Assembly (NCBI GenBank): GCA_934539585.1
Contig: CAKTCT010000032.1
Location: forward strand, 1-24,000
Source: an uncultured Oscillospiraceae bacterium
Lineage (GTDB): Bacteria; Bacillota; Clostridia; Oscillospirales; Ruminococcaceae
Direction: 5' to 3'
DNA length: 24,000 bases
Shown: positions 4,781 through 22,654 of the stretch, piece after piece
Layout of the letters: each line of letters opens with the position of its first letter
How positions within the stretch are numbered: position 1 is the first letter of the stretch
The notes under the pieces: generated by a model
The model's database searches: none
What the model was told of the DNA's origin: nothing
Seen by the model: only the letters and a program-made list of their open reading frames with translations
Program-made: the position numbers and the translations under genes

Positions 4781-5972
4781 AGCTCTGATCACGGAATTCG
4801 GCGCATCCCCGGCCAGGGAGGACAACGCGGCCTTCATCCAGCAGGCCATCGACTCCCTTCCCGGCGGCCGGGTGGTGATCCCACCGGGAGTCTACCGTTC
4901 CTCCGGCCTGCGGCTGAAAAGCGGCCTCCAGCTAATTCTGGAAAGCGGCGCGGTCCTGAAGGCCTCCGCCGACCTTTCCCGCTATCCCGTCCGGGGGATG
5001 TTCGACAGCGGCACCAAGGAAATGCGGACCTTTCTCTCGGCGGAGGGCTGCGCCGACCTCTCCATTCAGGGGCCGGGGACCATTGACGCCTCCGGGGACG
5101 CCTTTTTCGACTTTTCCTTCACCGACGAGGACCGGGCCCTCTACGGCGACGGCGTCCGGGAAACTCCGGCCCGGTGCAGGGAGCGGCTCAGCCATCCCAT
5201 CTATTTTTCCGACTGCGAAAACGTCCGGCTCCGGGAACTGACCATCGTCAACTCCCCCTGCTGGACCGTGACCCTGAACCGGTGCCGGGGCGTGAAAATC
5301 CGTGACGTAGACATTTCCACCGGGATGCGGATTCCCAACAGCGACGGGGTTCACATCAGCGGCAGCCAGGATGTGGAGATCACCGGCTGCACCCTCCGCT
5401 GCGGCGACGACTGCGTGGCCGTGACCTCCATTCTGGACAGCAGCGCCGTCAGCCAGAACGTTCTCATCTCCCACTGCATCCTGTCCTCCAGTTCCTCGGC
5501 CATCCGGGTGGGACACCTGGACGCCCGGGTGGAAAACGTTCTGATCTCCGGGTGCATCATCGAAAACGCCAACCGGGGCATCGCGATTTTTGCCGGAGAC
5601 GGCGGCGCGGTGGAGGCCGTAAAGGTCTCCGGCTGCATCCTCCGGACCCGGATCCTGGAGGGCGGCTGGTGGGGCAAGGGCGAGGCCGTGGTGGTGTGCA
5701 GCAAAAATTCCTCAGGCCGCATTTCCGACGTCTCCTTCCGGGACCTGACCGTGGAAACGGAGAACCAGCTGATCTTTGTGGGAAACGTGGAGAACTGCAC
5801 CCTGGACGGCTGCTCCATCCGGATAAAGGACAGTCCCCGGCGGAAATTCGCCCGGCAGTACGACATTGCGCCCAACGGGACCCTGGACCGGAAAAACGAC
5901 TTTCAGGGCCCCTTCTGCATCGACCTGGACCAGAACTGCGTCCTCCGCGTCAACGGAGAACCTGCAGAATAG
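4773..5972 (+). CDS. Glycoside hydrolase family 28 (polygalacturonase / rhamnogalacturonan-hydrolase-like, parallel beta-helix), no signal peptide
   Basis: 399 aa. GH28-type motifs NSDGVHISGS and CGDDCVAVTS, with repeated beta-helix-like segments. The ATG overlaps the GH42 stop (ATGCGTGA). Confidence 0.8.
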   Translation: MREALITEFGASPAREDNAAFIQQAIDSLPGGRVVIPPGVYRSSGLRLKSGLQLILESGAVLKASADLSRYPVRGMFDSGTKEMRTFLSAEGCADLSIQGPGTIDASGDAFFDFSFTDEDRALYGDGVRETPARCRERLSHPIYFSDCENVRLRELTIVNSPCWTVTLNRCRGVKIRDVDISTGMRIPNSDGVHISGSQDVEITGCTLRCGDDCVAVTSILDSSAVSQNVLISHCILSSSSSAIRVGHLDARVENVLISGCIIENANRGIAIFAGDGGAVEAVKVSGCILRTRILEGGWWGKGEAVVVCSKNSSGRISDVSFRDLTVETENQLIFVGNVENCTLDGCSIRIKDSPRRKFARQYDIAPNGTLDRKNDFQGPFCIDLDQNCVLRVNGEPAE

Positions 5973-9474: not shown

Positions 9475-10389
9475 ATGAAAAACGACAGAATCCCGCCCCA
9501 GAGCCCCGGGGACCAGGCCCTTTCCCGGGGGATCCGGGGATACGCCCTGGCCATCCGGGCCCTCCTTCTGGGAGCCGCCGCCTGCACGGTGCTGTTTCTG
9601 CTGAACCTCATCCTCTGGAACCGGACCGGGACCGCCTTCCTCTGGCTCTGCGGAGTGGTCCCCCTGATTTTCCTGACGGGGTGGGCCGCTTCCCGCCAGA
9701 AGCAGCTGATCTGGAACCACCTGGGCGGCGAAATCCACCAGCAGATCGAAGAACGCTTCGGCCCGGCCCTCCAGGAGCCGGGAATGACCATCGGCGAGGC
9801 CCTGATCCGGCAAGGCGCCATGATCCCCTGTCCCTGGGAGGAAAGCCGCATCACCGAAAACCGCGTGGGCCTTTATCACGGCCTCCGGTTCTTTGCCGCC
9901 AACGTGGAGCTGGTCCACGAGTACGACGCCATGATGAACCGGGAGGGCGTCACCGACGTCCTCCGGGAGACGGTCTTTTCCGGGTCGTGCCTGGCCGTGG
10001 AGGCCCGGCGGCCCTTCCCCGCCGCCTTCCGGGTCCTTCCCGGGGAGGACGGCGCGTTTACCGGGGACCCGGCCTTTGACCGCCGGTTTTCCGTCTCCGC
10101 CGACGACCCCCGGGCCGCCCGGGAGCTGCTGACCCCGGAGCGGCGGGCCCTCCTGCTGGAAATCGCCGACCTGCACCCCGTCTCCTTCGCCTTTCTGGAG
10201 GACCGGGTGCTCCTGGCCCTGGGCGGCCCGCCCCGGTTCCTGGCCATCGGCTCCGACATCGACGTGAAGAACATCGACACCCTGCGGCAGAGCTTCCGCC
10301 GCTCCCTGGACCACACCGCCGCCATCCTGGACATTCTGGCCCGGGACGACCGGCTCCATCCCACTGGCGAGAAAGGAAATGCAGTATGA
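9475..10389 (+). CDS. DUF3137-like membrane protein (two N-terminal TM helices)
   Basis: 304 aa. An N-terminal TM hairpin is followed by a domain resembling DUF3137 (…FFAANVELVHEY…, …DPAFDRRFSVSADDPRAARELLTPE…). The stop overlaps the lemA start (ATGA). DUF3137 and LemA are known genomic neighbours. Confidence 0.65.
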   Translation: MKNDRIPPQSPGDQALSRGIRGYALAIRALLLGAAACTVLFLLNLILWNRTGTAFLWLCGVVPLIFLTGWAASRQKQLIWNHLGGEIHQQIEERFGPALQEPGMTIGEALIRQGAMIPCPWEESRITENRVGLYHGLRFFAANVELVHEYDAMMNREGVTDVLRETVFSGSCLAVEARRPFPAAFRVLPGEDGAFTGDPAFDRRFSVSADDPRAARELLTPERRALLLEIADLHPVSFAFLEDRVLLALGGPPRFLAIGSDIDVKNIDTLRQSFRRSLDHTAAILDILARDDRLHPTGEKGNAV

Positions 10390-10919
10390 AAATCGCAATC
10401 ATTCTCCTGATTCTGGCAGTTCTTCTTGCCATTTGGTGCATCGCCACCGTCAACGGCTTCCGGAAAAAGGAAATCCGGGCCCAGGAAGGGCTTTCCGGCA
10501 TCGAGGTGGCCCTGGCCAAGCGCTACGACATGCTGACCAAGCTCCTGGACGCCGCCAAGGGCTACCTGACCCATGAGACCCAGCTGTTCACCGGGACCAT
10601 CCAGCTCCGCCAGGGCATGAACATCAGCCAGCTGAACCAGGCCCAGCAGCAGATGGAGGACCTTTCCGGCAAGCTCTTTGCCGTGGCCGAGAATTACCCC
10701 CAGCTCCGCTCCGACCAGGTCGTCGTGGAGCTCCAGCGGGGCATCCGGGACGCGGAGGAGCACCTCCAGGCCGCCCGGCGGCTCTACAACTCCAACGCCG
10801 CCAGCTATAACGCCGCCATTGCCATGTTCCCCGCAAGCCTCCTGGCCAAGGGCCGCCAGCCCCTGGAATTTTTCCAGGCCGACGCCAAAAAGCGTGAAGA
10901 CGTAACCATTTCGCTATGA
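10386..10919 (+). CDS. lemA: LemA family protein
   Basis: 177 aa. N-terminal TM anchor plus characteristic LemA sequence (…ALAKRYDMLTKLLDAAKGY…ENYPQLRSDQVVVELQ…AARRLYNSNAASYNAAIAMFPASLLA…). Confidence 0.9.
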   Translation: MKIAIILLILAVLLAIWCIATVNGFRKKEIRAQEGLSGIEVALAKRYDMLTKLLDAAKGYLTHETQLFTGTIQLRQGMNISQLNQAQQQMEDLSGKLFAVAENYPQLRSDQVVVELQRGIRDAEEHLQAARRLYNSNAASYNAAIAMFPASLLAKGRQPLEFFQADAKKREDVTISL

Positions 10920-10934
10920 CTCCGGGAGGATTAT

Positions 10935-11864
10935 ATGGAAAAGAAGAATCGAACGCAGGAAGCCGCGCCCACCCTTTCCGACGAGGAGCTTACCAGCCAG
11001 CTGGCCAAGTATAAGGCCCTCCTGGTCCTCGGGAAGCTCCTGGTGGGCGCGGGGGTGGTTGTCACCGGGATCAGCCTGTTCACGGGGATGATTCCTGGCG
11101 TTGTCGTCGGTATCCTCCTCGCCATCATCGGCAGCCTCGTCTCCCAGAAAGCCTCCGGCGCCATCAAGACCCGGACCAGCTCCAACCTGGTCCGGGCGGC
11201 CCTGGAGTCTGTTTTCGACAACGTAGACTACCAGCCCTTCCGGCACCTGTCCAGCTCCCAGATTTACAGCGCCGGGATGGCCTTCCCCTTCAGCTTTGAC
11301 GAAATTGAGGGCAGCGACTGCGTCAAGGCCGTCTACAAGGGCCTGAACATCGAGATGAGCGACATCTCCCTGGTCAGCGTCACCACCACGGAGGACGAAA
11401 ACGGCATGCAGAGCGAAAGCCGCTCCACGGTGTTCCAGGGCCTGTGGATGATCTGCGACTTCGGCAAGACCCTTTCCGCCGAGGTGAAACTGAGCAAGCG
11501 GAGCAAACTGGACCGGCTTTTCCGCAGCAAGGGCATCCAGACCGAAAGCGAGGAGTTCAACAAGCGCTTCTGCATCCAGTCGGAGAGCCCGGTGGAAGCC
11601 TTCTACATCCTGACGCCCCACATGATGGAGTACATCCTGGGGATGCAGTCCAAGGGCGGCGGCGACGTCTACATGAGCTTCCTCCGGGAGGGCAAGGTCC
11701 ACATCGCCATCAACTCCGGCCGGGACTCCTTTGAAGCGGAGAAGGGCACGGTAAACGCCGCCGCTCTCCGGGAGAAGTTCGTGGGCGAGATTCGGTACAT
11801 CACCGACCTCATCGACGAGCTGCGGCTGGTAGATACCTTATATCAGAAGGAGGGAACGGTATGA
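10935..11864 (+). CDS. DUF3137 domain membrane protein (second copy)
   Basis: 309 aa. TM hairpin, then …CVKAVYKGLNIEMSDISLV…FQGLWMICDFGK…EEFNKRFCIQSESPVEAFYILTPHMMEYIL…, which is typical DUF3137 architecture. RBS GGGAGG upstream. Confidence 0.75.
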   Translation: MEKKNRTQEAAPTLSDEELTSQLAKYKALLVLGKLLVGAGVVVTGISLFTGMIPGVVVGILLAIIGSLVSQKASGAIKTRTSSNLVRAALESVFDNVDYQPFRHLSSSQIYSAGMAFPFSFDEIEGSDCVKAVYKGLNIEMSDISLVSVTTTEDENGMQSESRSTVFQGLWMICDFGKTLSAEVKLSKRSKLDRLFRSKGIQTESEEFNKRFCIQSESPVEAFYILTPHMMEYILGMQSKGGGDVYMSFLREGKVHIAINSGRDSFEAEKGTVNAAALREKFVGEIRYITDLIDELRLVDTLYQKEGTV

Positions 11865-12085
11865 CCGTAGCCACCGCCATCATTCTCCTGATTTTCGCAG
11901 CCGCGGCCCTGGTCTGGGCGGTGATCGCCAAGCCCAGGAAGGCGGTGCGGATCGTCTGCATCGTCATCAGCGCCGTAATCGCCCTGGGATGCGCCGCCTA
12001 CATCGCCCTGGCGTTCCTGCTGGTCAACGGCATCCAGAACCAGCCCCCCATAGCGACAAGAATCGTCGAGACGATCCAACTCTAA
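11861..12085 (+). CDS. Small hypothetical membrane protein (74 aa, 2 predicted TM helices)
   Basis: The start overlaps the upstream stop (ATGA), suggesting translational coupling. It has two hydrophobic stretches separated by KPRKAVR. Confidence 0.5.
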   Translation: MTVATAIILLIFAAAALVWAVIAKPRKAVRIVCIVISAVIALGCAAYIALAFLLVNGIQNQPPIATRIVETIQL

Positions 12086-12104
12086 GCGCCGAAGGCGCTT
12101 AACC

Positions 12105-12720
12105 GGCACCACGTCAGGATGCCAGCCATCCACGTCAAGCCGCCGCGTATCTCCAAATCCTCATACAGGAGTCAAAGCGGTAAAAAGTGCTGCACGGTTG
12201 CCTACTGTCTGAGCACCGATAGCGGCGGCGGGAAGTGTCGCGTGCGGATATGTTTATCCAGCGCCTGCCGCCATTGGGGTCTTTAGGGGCGCAGCCCCTA
12301 AACGGTTTTTCTCCCCAATCTTTTTTCCGTAAAAAAGATTGGGTGCCCTGGTAGGACATAACAAATCTGTACAAACGTAAGTAGCCGCATAGGCTAGTAG
12401 GGCTTGCCGATTACGAATTAAAATCGGCAGCGCTACCGGCCTATGCGGCTACGTTCGCTTTGGATTATTGATAGGTCGGTCATAGCACCCCTTCTTTTCC
12501 CGCGTGGGAAAAGAAGGGGGAGAAAAGGACGCTCGGGTGGCTCCCGCCCCCCGAGGCCCCCTAAAGTCGCGCCTGAGGCTTCGGAGGACCCCGATATTAC
12601 CTCGCGGTGGACACGGCCGCCGCAATTGGTGGGGAGACAGTAGGCATCCAGCTGCCACTTTCGGACGTTTTGTTCCTCACGATGGGCTTTGGGGGCAGGC
12701 GGCGGCCTGACGTGGGTACC
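12105..12720. repeat. Copy A of a ~600-bp quasi-palindromic intergenic element (U-type arm ~12131-12412, apex ~12413-12421, inverted V-type arm ~12422-12716)
   Basis: Homologous to 16173-16806 (inverted) and 20337-20940 (direct). Terminal inverted motif GGCACCACGTCAGG…CCTGACGTGGGTACC. A 14-bp perfect central stem pairs 12381-12394 with 12439-12452. Local hairpins at 12282-12302, 12314-12343 and 12488-12519. Confidence 0.85.
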
Positions 12721-12721
12721 A

Positions 12722-13708
12722 TTATTTCTCACCCAAAATTTCTCGTAATACTTCTCTCGACACCAAAATGTCCTCTTTCGGAATTTTCTCCCAGGAAAAT
12801 TCCGGGATCAGCTCGGCGGCTTTTACCGGCTCCGGGCGGTCCAGCAACCCCGCCAGCCAGGCTAACAGCCCCAGAACCGCCTCCGGCCCGGTTACCCGCT
12901 GCCGCAAGGCCCCTAAATCCAGGTCGCCGTCCCGCTTGGACAGCCTCCGCCCGTCCTCGGCGGCCAGCAGGGGAATGTGCCCGTACCGCGGCGGCGAAAA
13001 TCCCCACAAGGATTGCAGCCAGATCTGCCGGGGACTGGACGAAAGCAGATCGCTGCCCCGGACCACCTCGGTGACGCCCATCAGCGCGTCGTCCAGGGCC
13101 GCCGCCAGCTGATACGCAAAGACCCCGTCCGCCCGCCGGAGGATAAAATCCCCGCAATCCCGGCTGAGCAGCTCCCGCTGGGGCCCGTAGTGGAGGTCGT
13201 CAAAGGCCACCCACTCCTCCGGGACCCGGATGCGGGCCGCGGGCTTCCGGGTCCTGGCCCGGAGCGCCGCTTCCTCCGGCGTCAGGTTCCGGCACCGGCC
13301 GGTGTACAGAAACCGCCCGTCGGAGCGGTGGGGCGCTTCCGCAGAATGGAGCTCCGTCCGGCTGCAAAAACAGGGGTATAAAAGCCCCATGTCCTCCAGC
13401 TTCCGGAAATATTTCCGGTAAATCTCCGTGCGCTGGCTCTGGAAATAGGGGCCGTTGGGCCCGCCTGCGGAGCACCCCTCGTCCCAGTCAAGACCCAGCC
13501 ACCGGAGGTCCTCCTCCAGAAGCCCGGCGTAGGCCCGGGGCGCACGCTCCGGGTCCAGGTCCTCGATGCGGAGGATCACCCGCCCGCCCTGGGACCGCGC
13601 GGAAAGCCAACTCAAAAGGGAACAGAACACGTTCCCCAGGTGCATCCGCCCGCTGGGCGTGGGCGCGAACCGCCCGGTAACGGCAGCCATGGCCATCATC
13701 CTTTCCAA
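12722..13708 (-). CDS. gluQ: tRNA glutamyl-Q(34) synthetase (GluQRS; truncated GluRS paralog)
   Basis: GRFAPTPSGRMHLGN (HIGH-like), ILRIEDLDPER, FAYQLAAALDDALMGVTEVVRGSDLL and LSKRDG (KMSKS-like). ~320 aa with no anticodon-binding domain. The exact start is uncertain (TTG at 13708 or a downstream ATG). Confidence 0.85.
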   Translation of the reverse strand: MERMMAMAAVTGRFAPTPSGRMHLGNVFCSLLSWLSARSQGGRVILRIEDLDPERAPRAYAGLLEEDLRWLGLDWDEGCSAGGPNGPYFQSQRTEIYRKYFRKLEDMGLLYPCFCSRTELHSAEAPHRSDGRFLYTGRCRNLTPEEAALRARTRKPAARIRVPEEWVAFDDLHYGPQRELLSRDCGDFILRRADGVFAYQLAAALDDALMGVTEVVRGSDLLSSSPRQIWLQSLWGFSPPRYGHIPLLAAEDGRRLSKRDGDLDLGALRQRVTGPEAVLGLLAWLAGLLDRPEPVKAAELIPEFSWEKIPKEDILVSREVLREILGEK

Positions 13709-13711
13709 ACT

Positions 13712-15595
13712 TTATACCGGGAGCTCATAAAGCCGGAACCACTTGAGCCCCGGCAGCCCCGATTCCAGCGTCCCCGCCCGGCGGAAGCCATAGGTCTCGT
13801 ACAGCGCGATCGCCGGGGAATTTTCCGTAAAAACGTCCAGCCGGAGGGCCTTGCAGCCGGTCTCCCGGCCCAATTTCCGGGCATGATCCAGGAGAAACCG
13901 CCCGCCTCCCCGCCGGGAGCACCCCGGGTCCACGCTGAGGGTGTGGACCGCCAGGACCTGCTCCTCCTCCGCCGGGACCTGCCAGGAGCCGCCGGCCCAG
14001 AACCCGGCCTGGTCGTGGTTCAGGATCACCGCCCCCGCCGGAAGGCCGCCGTCCTCCAGCAGCCAGAGGGTCCCGGCGGAAACGGTGGCCTCGGCCTCCT
14101 CACGCTCGGGATAAACCCCGCTGCGCCAGCCGCTGGGATTGACCAAGGCCCGCTCCGCCCGGCGGCAGATGCGCTCCCACAGGTCCGCCACCGCCGGAAT
14201 GTCCTCCCGGCGGGCCTGCCGGACCCGGAACTCCGGCTTCCGCGGGTACTCCGGGGAAAGCATGGGCCGGTGCTCCGGCAGCCAGCGGAGCAGCGCCGCC
14301 TTTTCGTTGGGGCACTCCCCATCCAGCACCCCTTCCAGTAGCTCCTCCAGCGACGCGCCGATCTCCCGGCCTGGGGCGACCCCCGCCGCCAGCAGGTCCT
14401 TGCCGCTGACGGCCAGCTGCTCCAGGGAAAGGCAGTCCCCGGCCTCCAGAATGTCCCGGGCCAGGGCCTCCAGCTTGTCCAAAAGGGAGCCCCGGTCGAA
14501 AGCCGGATTCTTAGCCCGGTCGTCGGCCCGCTTGACCTGCAGAAGGGCGAAAAAGTCCCCCGGCCCCAGCTCCCGGAGCCACCGGCACAGGACCGGCCGC
14601 TCCGGGGGAACCGCTGCGTCGTGCCACCGGACCAGGGTCCGGACCCGGCGGGCAGTCTCCCCGTCGGCGTCCAGGCGGCGGAGGACCTCCCTTGCGATGC
14701 CCTCGGAGGCGGCGGGGTGGCCCTTGAAATGCCCCCGGCCGCTGCGGTCCGTGAAGAAGCAGGCGGGCTTGCCGATGTCGTGGAGCAGCATGGTCAGCCG
14801 CAGCACCGGCTCCGGCGGGACCCCCTCCACCGCCCGGACCGTGTGCTCGTACACGTCCCAGAGGTGGTAGGGCGTGCGCTGGTCAAAGCCCCGCAAGGGC
14901 TCCAGCTCCGGGATGATCACCGCGAAGACCTCCGGAAATTCCCGGAGCACCCGCCCGGCCCCCGGCCCGCAGAGGAGCTTCAAAAGCTCCGGAAAAACCC
15001 GCTGGGGAGCCACCAGCCGGAGCCGTTCCCGATTCCGGCGAAGGCTCTGGGCGGTGGCCTGGTCCAGGGAAAAGTCCAGCGCCGCCGCAAACCGCAGCCC
15101 CCGGAGAATCCGCAGCGCGTCCTCCCCGAACCGCCGGTCCGGGTCCCCCACGCAGCGGATGATCCCCGCCGCCAGGTCCTCCCGGCCCCCGAAGCAGTCG
15201 GTGATTCCCTCCTCCGGGGACCAGGCCATGGCGTTGACGGTGAAATCCCGCCGGGCCAGGTCCTCCCGGAGGGAACGGGTGAAGGCCACGGAGTCCGGCC
15301 TGCGGCTGTCGGAGTAGGGCCCGTCCACCCGGTAGGTGGTGATCTCCAGGGGGCTGCCATCCAGGAGGACCGTCACCGTGCCGTGCTTTTCCCCGGTGGG
15401 GATCACCGGGACCCCGGCAAAGACCTCCCGGACCTCCTGGGGAAAGGCGGAGGTGGTGATGTCCCAGTCGTGGGGATCCCGCCCCAGCAGGCAGTCCCGG
15501 ACGCAGCCCCCAACGGCCTGGGCGGCGTACCCGGCGTCCCGGAGCCGGGCCAGGGCCTCCCGGACCGGTCCGGGGCAGGCTTCCGGCCGGATCAC
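13712..15595 (-). CDS. cca: CCA-adding enzyme (tRNA nucleotidyltransferase, class II, with HD domain) fused to a C-terminal GNAT acetyltransferase domain
   Basis: The GTG start overlaps the ybaK stop (GTGA). Head domain: AVGGCVRDCLLGR…DWDITT…RRDFTVNAMA. HD motif: LLHDIGKP. The C-terminal ~165 aa (about 13712-14215) carry a GNAT motif: HTLSVDPGCSRRGGGRFLLDHARKLGRETGCKALRLDVF…ALYETYGF. The ORF-track extension to 16099 is rejected. Confidence 0.85.
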   Translation of the reverse strand: MIRPEACPGPVREALARLRDAGYAAQAVGGCVRDCLLGRDPHDWDITTSAFPQEVREVFAGVPVIPTGEKHGTVTVLLDGSPLEITTYRVDGPYSDSRRPDSVAFTRSLREDLARRDFTVNAMAWSPEEGITDCFGGREDLAAGIIRCVGDPDRRFGEDALRILRGLRFAAALDFSLDQATAQSLRRNRERLRLVAPQRVFPELLKLLCGPGAGRVLREFPEVFAVIIPELEPLRGFDQRTPYHLWDVYEHTVRAVEGVPPEPVLRLTMLLHDIGKPACFFTDRSGRGHFKGHPAASEGIAREVLRRLDADGETARRVRTLVRWHDAAVPPERPVLCRWLRELGPGDFFALLQVKRADDRAKNPAFDRGSLLDKLEALARDILEAGDCLSLEQLAVSGKDLLAAGVAPGREIGASLEELLEGVLDGECPNEKAALLRWLPEHRPMLSPEYPRKPEFRVRQARREDIPAVADLWERICRRAERALVNPSGWRSGVYPEREEAEATVSAGTLWLLEDGGLPAGAVILNHDQAGFWAGGSWQVPAEEEQVLAVHTLSVDPGCSRRGGGRFLLDHARKLGRETGCKALRLDVFTENSPAIALYETYGFRRAGTLESGLPGLKWFRLYELPV

Positions 15596-16068
15596 TGGGC
15601 GATGGCGGCGGTCTGGCCGCGGGTGAGCTTTAACAGGTCGTCGGGGGAAAGCTCCACCTGGGTGCCGATCTTCCCGCCGCTGACCATAATGGTGGCGCAG
15701 GACCGGGCGCTTTCGTCCAGGGTTGTGCGGAAGGCTTTTTTCATCCCGATGGGCGAGCACCCGCCCCGGATGTAGCCGGTGACGGCGTTGATCTCGCTGA
15801 CATGAATCATCTCGATGGACTTTTCCCCCACAGCCTTGGCGGCGGCCTTGAGGTTCAGCTCCTTGTCCGAGGGGAGGACGAAGACGAAGTAGTTCCGGCT
15901 GGCCCCCCGGGTCACCAGGGTCTTGAAGACCCGTTCCACCGGCTGGCCCAGCTTTCCGGCCACGGAGACGGCATCGATCAGGCCGTCGTCGTGGGAGTAG
16001 TAGTGGGGGGTATAGGGGATTTTTCCTTTTTCCAGGATTCGCATGACGTTGGTTTTTTCTGCTGACAT
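15592..16068 (-). CDS. ybaK: YbaK/EbsC-type aminoacyl-tRNA deacylase (Cys-tRNA(Pro) deacylase family)
   Basis: 158 aa. MSAEKTNVMRILEKGKIPYTPHYY…FKTLV…VFVLPSDKELNLKAAAKAVG…VTGYIRGGCSPIGMKK…. A strong RBS (AAGGAG) lies upstream of the ATG at 16068. The ORF-track N-terminal extension into the repeat is rejected. Confidence 0.85.
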   Translation of the reverse strand: MSAEKTNVMRILEKGKIPYTPHYYSHDDGLIDAVSVAGKLGQPVERVFKTLVTRGASRNYFVFVLPSDKELNLKAAAKAVGEKSIEMIHVSEINAVTGYIRGGCSPIGMKKAFRTTLDESARSCATIMVSGGKIGTQVELSPDDLLKLTRGQTAAIAQ

Positions 16069-16100
16069 GAAAAAGCTCCTTTGTAAGGATTTCTCCCACC

Positions 16101-16129
16101 AGTATACCACGTTTCCGTGAGAAAGTCGA
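16101..16129 (-). promoter_or_regulatory. Candidate sigma-70-type promoter of the ybaK-cca-gluQ operon
   Basis: On the minus strand: TCGACT, 17 nt, TATACT, with an extended -10 (TGGTATACT). It lies ~30 nt upstream of the RBS and just outside repeat copy B. Confidence 0.5.
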
Positions 16130-16172
16130 GACAGTAGCGATTTCCCGGCGGAAACCGGAAAATGCCTGGGTG

Positions 16173-16806
16173 GGTGCGCTAATCGCACCAGGTCAGGCCG
16201 ACGCCTGCCCCCAAAGCCCATCGTGAGGAACGAAACGTCCGAAAGTGGTAGCTGGATGCCTACTGTCCACGCACCAATTGCGGCGGCCGTGTCCACCGCG
16301 AGGTAATATCGGGGTCCTCCGAAGCCCCAGACGCGACTTTAGGGGGTCTCGGGGGGCGGGAGCCCACCGAGCGCCCTTTTCTCCCCATTCTTTTCCCGCG
16401 CGGGAAAAGAATGGGTGCGATGAACCACCTATCGATAATCCAAAGCGAACGTAGCCGCATAGGCCGGTAGCACTGTCGAATCCGAATCGAATTTGGCAGT
16501 TCCTACCAGCCTATGCGGCTACTTACGTTTGTACAGATTTGTTTTGTCCTACATAGCGCACTTACTCTTTTCCCCGGAGGAAAAGAGTAAGCAGAAAAGT
16601 CCGTTTAGGGGCTGCGCCCCTAAAAACCCCAATGGCGGCAGGCGCTGGATATGGATGACCGCACGCGACACTTCCCGCCGCCGCTATCGGTGCTCGGACA
16701 GTAGGCAACCGTGCAGCACTTTTGGTCGCTTCGATTCCTGTATGAGGATTCGGAGATACGCGTCGGCTTGACGTGGGTATCGGTGCGGCGGCCTGACGTG
16801 GGTGCC
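16173..16806. repeat. Copy B (inverted relative to A and C) of the ~600-bp quasi-palindromic element (V-type arm ~16189-16478, U-type arm ~16495-16776, plus a duplicated terminal motif to 16806)
   Basis: The same invariant blocks as copy A in reverse order: GCCTACTGTC 16258-16267, GTAGCCGCATAGGC 16451-16464, GCCTATGCGGCTAC 16509-16522, GACAGTAGGC 16697-16706. Hairpins at 16384-16415, 16561-16591 and 16604-16624. Confidence 0.85.
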
Positions 16807-16810
16807 AGCC

Positions 16811-16835
16811 GCGGGATTTCCTCCGGAAATCCCGC
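16811..16835. other. Perfect 11-bp stem-loop GCGGGATTTCC-TCC-GGAAATCCCGC abutting repeat copy B
   Basis: The perfect inverted repeat was read directly from the sequence. No T-tract follows it. It sits between the element end (16806) and the -35 of the downstream promoter. Confidence 0.4.
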
Positions 16836-16842
16836 GAATCTA

Positions 16843-16871
16843 TGGACAAGCACCGGAAAATTCAGTATAAT
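16843..16871 (+). promoter_or_regulatory. Sigma-70-type promoter of the AI-2E/cls/membrane-protein operon
   Basis: TGGACA (16843-16848), 17 nt, TATAAT (16866-16871). It lies 32 nt upstream of the ATG, with RBS AAAGAGGAA. Confidence 0.6.
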
Positions 16872-16903
16872 AGCCTTATAACCTTTAGGAAAAGAGGAAC
16901 GCT

Positions 16904-18067
16904 ATGGAATGGAATCGAACCGTTTGGCTGAAACTGTCTTTGACGGCGGCCGGCGTGGTGGTTTTGTATTGGGCGCTCAATAACCTGAATACGCTGCGAA
17001 CGGCCCTGGGAACCATCATGGGCATCCTGTCCCCCTTCCTGGTGGGGCTCTGCATCGCCTATGTCCTGAGCGTCCCGATGCGCGGATTTGAAAAGCTGCT
17101 GTTCCGCCCGCGAAAACAGCGGAAGGGATCGCTCCGCCTCCATTTGGAGCGGTTCAAGGGACCTATCTGCCTGATCCTCTCCATCCTGACGGTGCTGCTC
17201 CTGGTGGCGGCGGTGCTGCTTCTGGTGGTTCCGGAGCTTGGGCGCACCGCTGTGACCATCCGGGACAGCCTCCCGGGCTTTGCGCTCCGCATGCAGGAGT
17301 TTGGCGGCCAGCTCCTGAACCGGTACCCGGCGATTCTCCAGACCGTCCAGAAAGTGGACTGGACCGGGCTCTGGGACAGCGTCCTGACCTTCCTGAAGTC
17401 CGGCGTGGGCAGCGTTCTGGGCTCCACCGTAGGGGTCATCGGCTCGGTGTTCAACGGCGCCACCGCCTTTTTTCTGGGCTGCGTTTTCGCCTGCTATGTC
17501 CTGCTCCAGCGCCAGACCCTGGCCCGGCAGCTGAAGCAGCTGTGCTACGCCCATCTCCGGGAGGACCGCGTGGACCGGCTCCTGGAAATCTGCGCCCTCA
17601 CCGACCGGACCTTCACCCGGTTTATCACCGGCCAGTGCGTGGAGGCGGTGATCCTGGGGACCATGTTCTTTGTGTCCATGAGCATTTTCCGTTTCCCCTA
17701 TGCCCTGATGATCTCGGTGCTCATCGCGTTTCTGGCCCTGATTCCGGTGTTCGGCGCCTTCGTCGGATGCTTTGTGGGGGCCCTGCTGATTCTGGTCGGC
17801 GATCCGATGAAGGCCATCTGGTTCGTTGTGCTGTTCCTGGTCCTCCAGCAGATCGAGGGAAACCTTATTTATCCCCGGGTGGTGGGCTCCTCGGTGGGCC
17901 TGCCGGGAATCTGGGTGCTGGTGGCCGTCACCATCGGCGGCAGCGCCTTCGGAGTCCTCGGAATGCTGGTCATGGTCCCGGCTGGTTCGGTGCTTTACTC
18001 TCTGGTCCGGGAAAACACCGCAAAACGGCTGAAACAGCGGGGAACTCCGCCCAAAAAGTACCGCTAA
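16904..18067 (+). CDS. AI-2E family transporter (PerM/UPF0118 permease)
   Basis: 387 aa with ~8 TM helices. Family-typical C-terminal core …LVLQQIEGNLIYPRVVGSSVGLPGIWVLVAVTIGG…. Confidence 0.85.
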   Translation: MEWNRTVWLKLSLTAAGVVVLYWALNNLNTLRTALGTIMGILSPFLVGLCIAYVLSVPMRGFEKLLFRPRKQRKGSLRLHLERFKGPICLILSILTVLLLVAAVLLLVVPELGRTAVTIRDSLPGFALRMQEFGGQLLNRYPAILQTVQKVDWTGLWDSVLTFLKSGVGSVLGSTVGVIGSVFNGATAFFLGCVFACYVLLQRQTLARQLKQLCYAHLREDRVDRLLEICALTDRTFTRFITGQCVEAVILGTMFFVSMSIFRFPYALMISVLIAFLALIPVFGAFVGCFVGALLILVGDPMKAIWFVVLFLVLQQIEGNLIYPRVVGSSVGLPGIWVLVAVTIGGSAFGVLGMLVMVPAGSVLYSLVRENTAKRLKQRGTPPKKYR

Positions 18068-18077
18068 AGGAGCGTTT

Positions 18078-19610
18078 ATGAAAAAAATCCTGCAATTTCT
18101 CACCCACCGCCTGGTGGTCTGCGTCCTGCTGATGCTGGTCCAGGCGGCAGTGCTGGTGGTCATGATCCTGGAATTCCAGAAGTACTTCGGCTACTTCTAC
18201 ATTTTCTGCATCGTTTTAAGCGTTCTGGCCGTCCTCTATATCATCAACAACCGCAGCAACCCGGCCTATAAAATCGCCTGGATCATCCCCATCCTGACAG
18301 TGCCGGTCTTCGGCGGCCTCATGTACCTGATCTTCGGCGGCAACCGCCTTTCCCGCCGGGAGCGGAAAAAGATGTCCACCGTGGCCCAGCGCTTCCAAAA
18401 GGCCGCCAAGGCGGTCCCCAACGCCATGGAGCAGCTGGAGGAGGAAAACGAGGACGCCGCCCACCAGGCCCGGTACATCCTGGACTACGCCGACGCCCCG
18501 CCCTTCCGGAACACCTCTGCGGAGTACCTTCCCACCGGCGAGGCCAAGTTTGAGCGGATGCTGGAGGAGCTCCAGAAGGCGGAGCGCTTCATCTTCTTAG
18601 AGTACTTCATCATCTCCGAAAGCTATATGTGGGACCGCATCCTGGAGGTCCTCAAGGAAAAGGCCCAGGTCGGCGTGGACGTCCGGGTCCTCTATGACGA
18701 CCTGGGCTCCATCATGACCCTCCCCCCGAAATACGACCGCCAGCTGGAGGAGTGGGGCATCCACTGCCGGGCCTTCAACCCCTTTGTGCCCATCCTCTCC
18801 CTGCGGTTCAACAACCGGGACCACCGGAAAATCTGCGTCATCGACGGCCGGGTGGGCATCACCGGCGGCGTGAACCTGGCCGACGAGTATATCAACAAGC
18901 GGACCATCCACGGCCACTGGAAGGACGCCGCCATCCTCCTCAAGGGCGACGCGGTGTGGAACCTGACCCTGATGTTCCTGAGCCTCTGGGACGACCTTTC
19001 CGGGGAGAAGGAGGACTTCACCCCCTACCGCTCCGCCCCCGCTCTGGAGCCGGTCCCCTCCGACGGCTACGTCCAGCCCTACACCGACAGTCCCCTGGAC
19101 AACGAGGCCGTAGGCGAAACGGTGTATATCAACCTGATCTACAAGGCCCGGAAGTACGTCTATATCAACACCCCCTACCTGATCCTCAGCAGCGAGATGA
19201 CCACGGCCCTCTGCACCGCGGCCAAATCCGGCATCGACGTCCGGATCGTGACCCCCCACATCGCGGACAAGTGGTACGTCCACGCCGTGACCCGGGCCAA
19301 CTACCCGGTCCTGGTGGAGGCCGGGGTCAAAATCTACGAGTACACCCCCGGCTTCATCCACGCCAAGACCTTCGTGGTGGACGGCGAATACGGCGTGGTG
19401 GGGACCATCAACCTGGACTACCGCAGCCTTTACCTCCACTTTGAGTGCGCGGTGTGGCTGTACCGGTGCTCCTGCATCGCCGCCATGGAGGCGGACTACC
19501 TGGAGACCCTGAAGGTCTGCACCCCAATCACAGTGGAGGACTGCCGGAACGTCAGGTGGTACGTCCGGCTGGGGCGGTCCATTCTGCGGGTCTTCGCGCC
19601 CCTGATGTAA
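18078..19610 (+). CDS. cls: Cardiolipin synthase (PLD superfamily, two HKD motifs)
   Basis: 510 aa. Two N-terminal TM helices. HKD motifs HRKICVIDGRVGITGGVNLADEY and HAKTFVVDGEYGVVGTINLDYRS. Confidence 0.9.
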   Translation: MKKILQFLTHRLVVCVLLMLVQAAVLVVMILEFQKYFGYFYIFCIVLSVLAVLYIINNRSNPAYKIAWIIPILTVPVFGGLMYLIFGGNRLSRRERKKMSTVAQRFQKAAKAVPNAMEQLEEENEDAAHQARYILDYADAPPFRNTSAEYLPTGEAKFERMLEELQKAERFIFLEYFIISESYMWDRILEVLKEKAQVGVDVRVLYDDLGSIMTLPPKYDRQLEEWGIHCRAFNPFVPILSLRFNNRDHRKICVIDGRVGITGGVNLADEYINKRTIHGHWKDAAILLKGDAVWNLTLMFLSLWDDLSGEKEDFTPYRSAPALEPVPSDGYVQPYTDSPLDNEAVGETVYINLIYKARKYVYINTPYLILSSEMTTALCTAAKSGIDVRIVTPHIADKWYVHAVTRANYPVLVEAGVKIYEYTPGFIHAKTFVVDGEYGVVGTINLDYRSLYLHFECAVWLYRCSCIAAMEADYLETLKVCTPITVEDCRNVRWYVRLGRSILRVFAPLM

Positions 19611-19630
19611 TCGAAAACGGAGGAATCGAC

Positions 19631-20326
19631 ATGCAGCGACAGTACAACGGCCATCTCCGCACCAACCGCAAGGATGCCAGCGGCTCCTTTGCCCACGACC
19701 TGAACTTCTACCAGCTTTTCTGGATTTTCTTCATCGGCTGCTTCCTGGGCGTGGTCATCGAGACCCTCTGGTGCCTCCTGACCCGCCACCACTACGAGAG
19801 CCGCACGGGGCTCATCTACGGCCCCTTCAACCTGGTCTACGGCTTCGGGGCGCTGTTCATGACCCTGGGCCTCAACTGGCTGAGCAAGAAGCGGGACGCC
19901 TGGATTTTCCTGGGCGGCGTGGTCATCGGCAGCGTATTCGAGTACCTTTGCAGCTGGATTCAGGAGACCCTGTTCGGCACGGTGTCCTGGCAGTACGACA
20001 AGATGCCCTTTAACCTCAACGGCCGGATCAACCTGCTGTACTCCCTGTTCTGGGGAGCCCTGGCCCTGGTGTGGGTCAAGGGGATTTACCCCCTGATGTG
20101 CCGGGCCATCAGCCGGATCCCCAACCAGATCGGGAAGCCCCTGACCTGGGTGCTGCTGGTGTTTATGGTCCTGAACTCCGCCATTTCGGGCCTGGCGGTC
20201 GCCCGGATGTCCGCCCGCCGGGAAGGCGCGGCCCCCACCACCGCCATCGAGTCCTTCTTAGACCGTCACTACCCCGACGAGCGACTGGAAAAGATTTACC
20301 CCAACATGGTATACGTGGAGAACTAG
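19631..20326 (+). CDS. Polytopic membrane protein, putative ABC-transporter type IV / CmpB (DUF1113)-like
   Basis: 231 aa starting at MQRQYNG…, with RBS ACGGAGGAA. …FWIFFIGCFLGVVIETLWC…TGLIYGPFNLVYGFGALFM… resembles the PF06541 family. This assignment is from memory and is tentative. Confidence 0.65.
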   Translation: MQRQYNGHLRTNRKDASGSFAHDLNFYQLFWIFFIGCFLGVVIETLWCLLTRHHYESRTGLIYGPFNLVYGFGALFMTLGLNWLSKKRDAWIFLGGVVIGSVFEYLCSWIQETLFGTVSWQYDKMPFNLNGRINLLYSLFWGALALVWVKGIYPLMCRAISRIPNQIGKPLTWVLLVFMVLNSAISGLAVARMSARREGAAPTTAIESFLDRHYPDERLEKIYPNMVYVEN

Positions 20327-20336
20327 ACCTTGATAC

Positions 20337-20940
20337 GTGCGCCAATCGCACCACGTCAAGCCGACGCGTATTTCCGAAGTCCCATACAGGAATCGAAGCG
20401 GTAAAAAGTGTTGCACGGTTGCCTACTGTCTGAGCACCGATAGCGGCGGCGGGAAGTGTCGTGTGCGGATATGTCTATCCAGCGCCTACCGCCATTGGGG
20501 TTTTTAGGGGCGGGAGCCCCTAAACGGTTTTTCTCCCCAATCTTTTTTCCGTAAAAAAGATTGGGTGCCCTGGTAGGACATAACAAATCTGTACAAACGT
20601 AAGTAGCCGCATAGGCTAGTAGGAACTGCCAAATTCGATTCGATTTCGGCAGCACTACCGGCCTATGCGGCTACGTATGTTTTGGATTATCGATAGGTGG
20701 TTTCTTGCACCCCTTCTTTTCCCGCGTGGGAAAAGAAGGGGGAGAAAAGGACGCTCGGTGGGCTCCCGCCCCCCGAGACCCCCTAAAGTCGCGCCATAGG
20801 CTTCGGAAAGCCCCAATACTGCCTCGCGGTGGAAACGGCCGCCGCAATTGGTGCGTGGACAGTAGGCATCCAGCTGCCACCTTCGGACGTTTCGTTCCTC
20901 ACGATGGGCTTCTGGGGCAGGCGGCGGCCTGACGTTGTAC
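20337..20940. repeat. Copy C (same orientation as A) of the ~600-bp quasi-palindromic element (U-type arm ~20352-20632, V-type arm ~20644-20936)
   Basis: By eye ~15 differences from copy A over the ~275-nt U arm; the V arm is more diverged. Invariant blocks at 20421-20430, 20603-20616, 20661-20674 and 20858-20867. Hairpins at 20503-20524, 20536-20565 and 20710-20741. Confidence 0.85.
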
Positions 20941-20962
20941 GCAATGGTACGCTGTACCTCAT

Positions 20963-22654
20963 TTAATGCACCAATTCCCCAGCCGTAACATCATAAATCC
21001 CTGCGTCAATGATCCGCAGCTCGGGGATCACCGGAAGGGAAAGAAAACTCAGCGTCATAAAGGGATCAATGTCCCCACGGACGCCCATCCCCCGGGCCAT
21101 TTCCTTCATCTGCTCTACGGTTTTCTCCACGTCCTGCCTGCGGTCGTTGGTGAAAAGCCCGCCCACCGGCAGCGGCTGGGTCAGCAAGGGCTTGCCCCCG
21201 GCTACCAGGGTGTACCCGCCCTGGCACCGCTGAAGTTCCCGGGCCGCCGCCAGCATGTCCTCGTCGTTGTCCCCCACCAGGATCATGTTGTGGGAATCGT
21301 GGGCAATGGTGGACCCGATGGCCCCGCCCCGGAGCCCGATGCCGGAAACGATGCCCACCGCCACGTGACCGTTGCGGCCGTGACGCTCCACCACGGCGAT
21401 TTTCAGCAGATCGTTGACCGGAGTGAAGTATCCGTCCTGCTCCGGAGGGTCCAAAATCAGCTTCCGGGTGACGATCTCCCCGGGAACGATGCCGATCACC
21501 GGGAACCCCGGATGCACCGGCAGCCGCAGCCGCTCCGCCGTCAGCTCCGGCAGATGCACCGTCCGCTTCAGTGAAAGACCGCAGCCCCGGTTGGGCAGCG
21601 TAAAGGGCTCCCCGGCCCGGCAGACCAGCTTTCCGCCTACATAGACCTGGTCCGGGTCCATGGCCTCCACGCTGTTCAGGACCACCAGGTCCGCCAGATA
21701 CCCCGGCGCAATGGCCCCCTGATGCTCCAGCCCGTAAGCCTGGGCGGGATTCAGCGTCGCCATGCGGATGGCCGTCACCGGCGGCACCCCCAGCTGAATG
21801 GCCCGGCGGACGCAGGCGTTGATGTGCCCCTCCCGCCGGACGTCGTCCAGGTGCTTGTCGTCGGTGCAGAAAACGAACCGGTCCAGAGGAATCCCCGCCT
21901 GCAGGGCCCCGGTGAGGATGGCGTCCAGGTTCCGGGCGGCCGTCCCCTGGCGGACCTGGACGTAAAAGCCCAGCTGAATCCGCTCTAAAGCGGCCTCAAA
22001 GGTGGAGCACTCATGGTCGGTGGACACCCCGGCCAGCCGGTAGGCCCCCAGAGGCTTGCCTGTGACACCGGGAGCGTGGCCGTCGATGCGGCGGTGGAAC
22101 AGGGAGAGCTTCTCCATCATCTCCGGCTCCTCGGAAAGGACCGCGGGAACGTCCATGACCTCCCCCAGGCCGAAAACCTGGTCGTCCCGGAGGAACCGCC
22201 GCATCTGCTGGGGGCCGAAGTCCGCGCCGTTGGTCTCCAGGCTGTTGGCGGGAACGCAGGAGGGCAGCATCCAGTGGACGTGGGCGGGGACGTCCCGGGT
22301 TTCCTTGAGCATGTATTCCATGCCCCGGGAGCCTGCCACGTTGACGATCTCATGGGGGTCGGCAATGACCGTCACCGTCCCGCAGGGGAGGATTTTTTCC
22401 AGAAACAGCCGGGGCGACACCAGGGAGGACTCGAAGTGCATATGAGCGTCCACCAGCCCGGGGATCAGGTACTTCCCGGTCAGGTCCACCTCCGTCTCCC
22501 CCGCAAAGCTGCCCACGCCCACGATCCGCTCCCCGCAGACCGCCACGTCCGCCTGGCGGAACCGGCCGGTGAACACGTCGGCAATGATCGCGTTTTTGAA
22601 CACCAGCTGGGCCTTTTTCCGGCCCAGAGCCATTTTCATCTCATCCCGTTCCAT
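20963..22654 (-). CDS. ade: Adenine deaminase
   Basis: 563 aa amidohydrolase. …LIPGLVDAHMHFESSLVSP…TVIADPHEIVNVAG…VFCTDDKH… is typical of Ade/AdeC. RBS GGGAGG upstream of the ATG at 22654. Confidence 0.9.
   Translation of the reverse strand: MERDEMKMALGRKKAQLVFKNAIIADVFTGRFRQADVAVCGERIVGVGSFAGETEVDLTGKYLIPGLVDAHMHFESSLVSPRLFLEKILPCGTVTVIADPHEIVNVAGSRGMEYMLKETRDVPAHVHWMLPSCVPANSLETNGADFGPQQMRRFLRDDQVFGLGEVMDVPAVLSEEPEMMEKLSLFHRRIDGHAPGVTGKPLGAYRLAGVSTDHECSTFEAALERIQLGFYVQVRQGTAARNLDAILTGALQAGIPLDRFVFCTDDKHLDDVRREGHINACVRRAIQLGVPPVTAIRMATLNPAQAYGLEHQGAIAPGYLADLVVLNSVEAMDPDQVYVGGKLVCRAGEPFTLPNRGCGLSLKRTVHLPELTAERLRLPVHPGFPVIGIVPGEIVTRKLILDPPEQDGYFTPVNDLLKIAVVERHGRNGHVAVGIVSGIGLRGGAIGSTIAHDSHNMILVGDNDEDMLAAARELQRCQGGYTLVAGGKPLLTQPLPVGGLFTNDRRQDVEKTVEQMKEMARGMGVRGDIDPFMTLSFLSLPVIPELRIIDAGIYDVTAGELVH

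Follow-up and report, generated by a model that had tools for sequence, protein, structure and literature searches.

A ~590-bp non-coding foldback repeat with inverted ends, dispersed in an uncultured human-gut Oscillospiraceae species

What kind of sequence fills three similar intergenic gaps within 9 kb of one another on a contig of an uncultured Oscillospiraceae bacterium (GenBank assembly GCA_934539585.1, contig CAKTCT010000032.1, positions 1 to 24,000; this whole 24,000-nt stretch is the window)? A first-pass annotation, made from the letters alone, had described 12105-12720 (A), 16173-16806 (B) and 20337-20940 (C) as copies of one sequence family, A and C direct and B inverted, and had offered large ornate RNAs or HEARO/omega-RNA-type elements as a lead. 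Repeat finding, a three-way alignment and BLAST each returned a single family of ~590 bp with three copies in the window, in just these orientations. The loci were right, with a homologous core slightly narrower than the intervals first given; bases 12105-12129 and 16777-16806 are real parts of the loci that belong to accessory end-sites. Two features had gone unremarked, namely terminal inverted repeats (TIRs) and the folding of the whole element as one long foldback. All three intervals are genuine members of one repeat family, ~590 bp long, non-coding, hairpin-forming and bounded by inverted ends, and on balance we regard them as a non-autonomous dispersed foldback repeat, resembling either miniature inverted-repeat transposable elements (MITEs) or mosaic intergenic repeats. 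The cores found by the three methods are:

12130..12715, plus strand: core of copy A, 586 bp
16188..16776, minus strand: core of copy B, 589 bp
20351..20937, plus strand: core of copy C, 587 bp

The window copies are 87-91% identical pairwise (with copy A as BLAST query, 90.6% identity to C and 88.8% to B), and pairwise identity across six loci of the family is 87-93%. Copies A and C both lie between convergent genes, A between a 74-aa open reading frame (ORF) ending at 12085 and a GluQ-RS-like gene with its stop at 12722, C between a CmpB-like gene ending at 20326 and an adenine deaminase gene with its stop at 20963. At these two loci 6-25 nt separate the element from the adjacent stop codons, with no further hairpin in between. 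Copy B separates divergent genes, the YbaK/CCA-GNAT operon on its left and an AI-2E transporter gene on its right. Family loci mostly occupy gaps between convergent genes, and the orientation of the repeat shows no relation to the adjoining genes. The promoter-like sites beside copy B fall outside its core, as had been claimed of both promoters flanking it, and no promoter-like site was found inside the element in the three window copies.

TIRs of ~17 nt bound every copy, the sequence CCACGTCA(A/G)GCCGNCGC standing at both ends of A, B and C. CCACGTCAAGCCGNCGC opens each copy and the reverse complement of CCACGTCAGGCCGCCGC closes it; the family end sequence can also be given as CCACGTCARGCCG. 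The 17-nt end-site itself is not palindromic. Because this motif occurs at seven sites in the window against 0.23 expected, the homology of the three copies lies far beyond chance. The TIRs are:

12130..12146, plus strand: left TIR of A, CCACGTCAAGCCGCCGC
12699..12715, minus strand: right TIR of A, reverse complement CCACGTCAGGCCGCCGC
16760..16776, minus strand: left TIR of B, from the end-motif scan
16188..16204, plus strand: right TIR of B, from the end-motif scan
20351..20367, plus strand: left TIR of C, with inverted-repeat likeness extending ~14 nt outward (20337-20350, GTGCGCCAATCGCA)
20921..20937, minus strand: right TIR of C, from the end-motif scan

Between these ends, the two halves of the element form an imperfect inverted repeat, which folds end to end into a rod with local hairpins; complementarity between the arms is ~73% over their outer ~100 nt. 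Every motif coordinate of the first-pass annotation proved exact, that is, GTAGCCGCATAGGC/GCCTATGCGGCTAC at 12381-12394/12439-12452, 16451-16464/16509-16522 and 20603-20616/20661-20674, and GCCTACTGTC/GACAGTAGGC at 12200-12209/12636-12645, 16258-16267/16697-16706 and 20421-20430/20858-20867. The hairpins of the rod are:

12381..12452, no strand: central hairpin of A, a perfect 14-bp stem with further pairs, the foldback's symmetry centre
16451..16522, no strand: central hairpin of B
20603..20674, no strand: central hairpin of C
12282..12302 (plus strand), 20503-20524 (plus strand) and 16604-16624 (minus strand): hairpin H1, terminator-like, with a T-run
12314..12343 (A) and 20536-20565 (C): hairpin H2, allele v1, 13-bp stem
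16561-16591 (B): hairpin H2, allele v2, its stem changes fully compensated
12488..12519, 16384-16415 and 20710-20741: hairpin H3, 14-bp stem, one compensated pair
12532..12555, 16348-16371 and 20754-20777: hairpin H4 (CTCGG...CCGAG)

Folded as RNA, the whole element gave z = -10.3 on the plus strand and z = -14.7 on the minus strand; as single-stranded DNA (ssDNA) it gave z = -13.8 and the same rod. A consensus fold of 15 sequences from six loci and several strains comprised 176 pairs, with 98.9% of cells paired against 40-47% when the partners were slid, and compensatory changes at 8 consensus pairs (four in H2, one in H3 and three elsewhere, all long-range). The alifold consensus was -230.8 kcal/mol with 176 pairs and 251 G-U cells as given, against -220.6 kcal/mol, 171 pairs and 254 G-U cells for the reverse complement. 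In single-sequence folds the plus orientation was 6-18 kcal/mol more stable in every copy, a small advantage that is gone in the consensus fold, and the plus strand carries UUCG-type loops. Single mismatches in the stems of Watson-Crick-only folds, counted over nine non-independent copies, showed a weak excess of G.T over A.C (29 vs 17), and many were non-wobble. Both strands fold equally well, and so does ssDNA, so that the structure carries no sign of a particular RNA strand; it is what a DNA palindrome yields, with nothing in it to suggest that one strand is transcribed.

The family extends beyond the window. We found it at at least eight loci with different flanks, comprising A, B, C, a fourth copy (D) ~9 kb past the window's end, and loci L005, L006, L007 and L008; copies A to D lie within 19 kb, with none in the 20 kb upstream. 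Occupied loci A to C were recovered with collinear flanks in more than 20 independent metagenome assemblies made by different assemblers, including contigs of 78, 197 and 291 kb (the last two being ERZ28760847 contig_21964 and GCA_964261755.1 CAXVQW010037746.1, long contigs of the host species). Proteins of the window occur in many human-gut metagenome assemblies. An exact-pattern scan for the central hairpin matched none of 185,579 species genomes and, among 241 million metagenome records, four contigs, all from the human gut. Among those species representatives the nearest genomes are uncultured Ruminococcaceae/Oscillospiraceae: the cardiolipin synthase is 81% identical in amino acids to that of UMGS1826 and ~57-65% identical to those of Angelakisella, Bittarella and Negativibacillus. 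Neither blastn nor an nhmmer profile detected the element in 1.29 Mb from 80 relatives' loci (best nhmmer E 0.08). The nearest relative, at 81% amino-acid identity, keeps a conserved gene neighbourhood without a copy, its gaps being short or holding another gene, at junctions that are not strictly orthologous to the window loci. By these searches the family is private to one uncultured human-gut Oscillospiraceae species.

The search for further copies in relatives and metagenomes that the first-pass annotation had proposed thus yielded at least eight loci in one species and none in 80 relatives' loci. That annotation had held that its reading would fall to a database assignment, or to copies restricted to this locus, without a transcript and not conserved in relatives. 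Conservation in relatives is indeed lacking; there was no Rfam match, and the copies are not restricted to this locus. Exact-pattern scans of viral contigs were empty in two cases, and the third returned a single 21-nt identity to the left end motif (L128:3428-3448) without extended similarity, which we judged a chance match.

The claim that the element is non-coding was borne out. The ORFs cited for it hold in-frame stops, nothing similar turned up among 5.8 billion protein clusters when copy A was translated in six frames, and in dozens of assemblies the gene callers left every copy without a gene. A cmscan search of Rfam 15 at gathering thresholds gave no match; relaxed searches (E<=10 for 12000-21000, E<=1 for the fourth copy and its flanks) gave only generic hairpin look-alikes far under the gathering score. 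No tRNA or tmRNA was detected, in keeping with the first reading, and the Rfam check likewise offered no family. The elements contain no tandem arrays, plasmid and phage collections gave no blastn match, and a search of the literature for these motifs and for Clostridia MITEs found nothing relevant. As had also been claimed of the neighbourhood, no transposase, recombinase, reverse transcriptase, IscB or TnpB gene was found in ~65 kb of contiguous sequence around the copies.

Several described families were considered and set aside. ROOL, OLE, GOLLD and raiA had no covariance-model match in Rfam; for HEARO/omega-RNA or TnpB reRNA, which would lie beside IscB/TnpB at an end of an IS200/605-type element, there was again no Rfam match, and no IscB or TnpB gene lies inside or adjacent. 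Group II introns are recognised by domains D1-D4 with domain V/VI and by the boundaries 5' GUGYG ... AY 3'. An ORF-less intron of this kind was rejected on the lack of an Rfam intron match and of a domain V, and on the symmetric palindrome with inverted ends; GTGCG does occur in the extended ends, yet both of the inverted ends carry it. The GGGG terminus of Tn3-type ends is absent, the flanks are inconsistent with the TA duplication of IS630/Tc1, and a 590-bp foldback does not fit the unit definition of REP/BIME/REPIN (imperfect palindromes of 20-40 nt, single or paired as inverted doublets).

In natural strains the element behaves as repeat DNA. Short-read contigs break inside it, and because of the repeat the contigs of the host stop every ~3.5-4 kb, the inter-element spacing, in most short-read assemblies. 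Between strains an element at one locus differs by 2-9%, with 98-100% identity in its flanks, and the differing stretches correspond to sequence of other copies; locus B, for example, has H2 v1 or v2 depending on the strain. Such tracts show gene conversion, with paralogous copies exchanging segments. Part of the variation could be assembler mis-threading, but the same states recur in independent assemblies.

Larger changes also have their breakpoints in the repeat. At locus C, two independent assemblies (L122:12634-13224 and L124:9428-10016) join the adenine deaminase gene to other genes, namely those for Met gamma-lyase, two M42 peptidases and a MurD-like gene. The junction copy is a hybrid, with an adenine-deaminase-proximal half nearly identical to C and a distal half carrying H2 v2, which points to homologous recombination between copies. 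At locus B, one assembly (L115:2066-3001) joins the AI-2E gene across B to ABC-transporter and solute-binding-protein genes in place of the YbaK/CCA-GNAT operon, and its copy B has a full right-hand accessory module and outer end-site. Judged from these junctions, the assemblies show the copies serving as substrates for homologous recombination that rearranges the chromosome.

The ends of the copies are modular. The left end of the fourth copy has three end-sites in tandem, and B (in part), the fourth copy, L005 and L115 carry a right-end accessory module of 60-165 nt with hairpins of its own, which terminates, where complete, in another end-site. In four cases the outermost end-site lies 3-4 nt from a pre-existing hairpin. 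In the window the accessory features are:

12107..12123, plus strand: extra partial end-site of A, CACCACGTCAGGATGCC, in tandem outside the left TIR and directly 3' of the hairpin TAAGCGCC-GAAG-GCGCTTA
16785..16801, minus strand: extra complete end-site of B, CCACGTCAGGCCGCCGC, in tandem outside the left TIR
16809..16836, minus strand: hairpin at the outer end-site of B, CGCGGGATTTCC-GGA-GGAAATCCCGCGG, similar to the hairpin of the right-hand accessory module
16128..16187, minus strand: partial accessory module ('module R') of B, TGCGATTAGCGCACCCACCCAGGCATTTTCCGGTTTCCGCCGGGAAATCGC, outside the right TIR and common to copies in L001, L005, L115 and L121

The hairpin-rich module R, a separate sequence of ~90-165 nt beside the right end of some copies, stands at L121:2675-2868, L005:531-680, L001:418-545 and L115:2190-2290, and solo end-sites or fragments of the element come after it. 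It may represent either another small family of repeats or the element's own true outer portion. In one sample (L001:1-417 vs L121:2869-3454) the fourth copy has ~67 nt in place of 15 nt of the element, a replacement not seen in other strains; the segment consists of two small hairpins, GCAAAGTCGC-AAA-GCGACTTTGC and GCATTTTCCATCAC-AAG-TGATGAAAAATGC, and may be a nested mini-insertion. At L006:951-2762 a ClpB/ClpC-like AAA+ ORF (...LIRLDMSEYMEKHS followed by ARISESS...) runs into an element copy without its first ~14 nt, TIR included; the junction lies near 2606-2620 and the contig ends within the element. This is either a repeat-disrupted gene or a chimeric contig.

How should such a repeat be classified? 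MITEs have a related autonomous insertion sequence (IS) or transposon with the same ends, which gives transposase in trans. The present family shares with them a small size (about <=600-800 bp), the lack of coding content, TIRs and multiple dispersed copies in one genome, and shows neither the target-site duplication nor the insertion polymorphism of MITEs. Strict MITE membership is unproven. We do not claim it because the duplication test failed, no insertion polymorphism was seen and the sequence covered for a parent element was confined to ~65 kb around the copies and the other contigs. For a non-autonomous dispersed foldback repeat we would picture transposition in trans as the means of spread, with the repeated end-sites or hairpins recognised by an enzyme whose gene lies elsewhere in the genome; the tandem end-sites resemble transposon ends with several transposase-binding sites. 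The lack of target-site duplications suggests a non-canonical route, which might be site- or structure-directed or based on ssDNA. Resident copies would act as passive bidirectional terminators or RNA 3'-end hairpin cassettes for genes reading into them, since H1 is terminator-like and a stretch of 6-25 nt, free of other hairpins, separates A and C from stop codons.

A number of observations weigh against this classification. We saw no consistent target-site duplication in five full copies, scanned at all boundary offsets for lengths of 2-10 nt (dinucleotide chance matches only), and inspection by hand, taking the outermost end-sites of A, C and D, revealed none either. The comparison of strains for presence or absence that had been proposed earlier revealed no empty site or insertion polymorphism, loci A, B, C and D being occupied in every recovered strain. 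No autonomous partner or transposase appeared in the ~65 kb or on other contigs. At ~590 bp, and up to ~800 bp with modules, the element is large for a bacterial MITE. Its borders are ragged: further end-sites stand there in tandem, and a flanking module may be present or absent. Conservation varies rather little over its length (0.78-0.96 per 40-nt window, with the minimum at H2), and, unlike in many MITEs, the termini are no better conserved than the interior. The copies are clustered, four in 19 kb against none in the 20 kb upstream, in a family of at least eight loci in total. Finally, the compensatory changes in H2 and H3 show that these hairpins are maintained, which a functional RNA would fit as well.

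Of the described systems that come closest, one is the group of bacterial MITEs with long inverted repeats, such as the foldback-type E622 of Pseudomonas syringae (611 bp, with inverted repeats of ~168 bp). Like these, the window repeat is a non-coding unit of a few hundred bp with TIRs and long subterminal complementarity that folds back as a whole, and is multicopy, intergenic, placed in either orientation, lineage-restricted, prone to break assemblies and subject to recombination. It differs from them in having no detectable target-site duplication, identified parent transposon or observed presence/absence polymorphism, in its extra tandem end-sites and optional 60-165-nt module, and in termini no more conserved than the interior. 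With REP/BIME of enterobacteria, RIME of rhizobia, BOX of pneumococci and ERIC it has in common modular hairpin units, a position at gene 3' ends, duplication-free borders, concerted evolution and presumed terminator or RNA-stabilising side effects; unlike them it has a unit ~10 times larger with defined inverted termini, a single ~590-bp foldback, and no sequence similarity to any of them. We know of no RAYT association for it.

A distinctly less likely reading is that the family is a host-maintained mosaic of the REP/BIME/RIME type rather than a classical cut-and-paste MITE. Recombination or gene conversion would be the main means by which its hairpin units were dispersed and kept alike, or else this would be the work of a single-copy Y1 enzyme of RAYT type on DNA hairpins; the units would be retained as terminators, mRNA stabilisers or sites for nucleoid proteins. 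The missing duplications agree with this, as do the modular ragged ends with optional units and solo end-sites, the discrete hairpin alleles that reassort among copies and strains, the hairpins maintained with compensatory changes, the terminator-like H1 and the position at gene 3' ends, touching stop codons or hairpins. REP units (20-40 nt) and BIMEs, however, are much smaller than this 590-bp unit with its clear inverted termini; it is not obvious what a terminator would do at copy B, which has divergent promoters on its two sides; and no RAYT gene was seen in the recovered sequence, the whole genome not having been searched. It is very improbable that the copies are an assembly artefact, a chimeric or collapsed repeat left by a metagenome assembler. 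Some in-copy strain variation could come from de Bruijn graph mis-threading through repeats and the L006 clpB-like junction could be chimeric, but the same three occupied loci recur, with collinear flanks, across the independent assemblies, assemblers and long contigs described above.

We think it unlikely that the element is a multi-copy gene for a large structured RNA, whether ROOL/OLE/GOLLD-like or a HEARO/omega-RNA guide, with the rod and hairpins as its functional fold. In its favour are the very stable fold, the compensatory changes in H2, H3 and the three long-range pairs, the greater stability of the plus orientation in every copy, the UUCG-type loops of that strand and a high overall conservation (~89%); it also resembles ROOL, OLE, GOLLD and HEARO/omega-RNA in its length (~300-800 nt), in being predicted to be extensively structured and in coming from Firmicutes or gut metagenomes. 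Against this, Rfam offered no match even at E<=10, the consensus fold of the opposite strand is equally good with equal G-U usage and the G.T excess is weak, none of the three window copies has an internal promoter-like site, and orientation is independent of the neighbouring genes. Unlike those RNAs, the repeat has no covariance-model match, a strand-symmetric structure, several dispersed copies per genome with inverted ends, no associated gene nearby (oapA for OLE, IscB for HEARO, or a TnpB or other partner) and conservation in one species only, and its 'covariation' moves as whole swapped alleles. The original lead towards ornate RNAs or HEARO/omega-RNA therefore gives way before the strand-symmetric palindrome, the TIRs, the confinement to one species and the dispersed-repeat behaviour. 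We give equally little credit to a new class of mobile structured element, that is, a duplication-less foldback that moves or is copied beside pre-existing hairpins, either by way of its hairpin or ssDNA state or with the help of a recombinase directed by a guide or by structure, or else a ~590-nt rod expressed as a functional RNA. The element behaves as selfish repeat DNA that is copied, recombined and assembly-breaking, and there is no specific evidence for a new large RNA. The family is new and ordinary in kind, a bacterial dispersed palindromic repeat that is unusual in its size, its modular ends and its missing target-site duplications.

As such it enlarges the short list of repeat families known from gut Clostridia by one that is large, highly structured and private to its lineage, and it offers a view, in natural populations, of gene conversion between copies and of chromosomal rearrangements with breakpoints inside a repeat. 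For RNA discovery it carries a caution: a long, stable and "covarying" fold can arise wholly from a DNA palindrome. Were the repeat after all a mobile structured element of a new class or a functional RNA rod, its local density of four copies in 19 kb would suffice to cause rearrangements and to break up the short-read assemblies of a common but unbinned gut Oscillospiraceae.

The organism's proteins are indexed in 54-149 blocks of a public assembly collection, yet the best species representative reaches only 81% (cardiolipin synthase). The host species seems common but poorly binned, and repeat-driven fragmentation of assemblies may contribute to the poor binning and to the lack of a close reference among the 185,579 genomes.

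Other genes of the window deserve brief mention. The long ORF at 13712-16099 (minus strand) corresponds in assemblies to two genes, one for a YbaK-like tRNA-editing protein of 158 aa and the other for a 627-aa fusion of a CCA-adding enzyme/poly(A) polymerase with a C-terminal GNAT acetyltransferase; together with the GluQ-RS-like gene that follows, which encodes a catalytic domain only, they form an unusual tRNA-related cluster. A DUF3137-LemA-DUF3137 triplet occupies 9475-11864 (plus strand), preceded by genes for two uncharacterised proteins (353 and 437 aa) without a Pfam match. In the strain of the window and in some others, the GH35/GH42 beta-galactosidase at 2670-4844 (plus strand) is split between two overlapping gene calls (457 + 261 aa), and elsewhere it is a single 703-aa gene (compare L130/L131/L133/L134 10902-13013), which suggests a frameshift polymorphism or a sequencing error.

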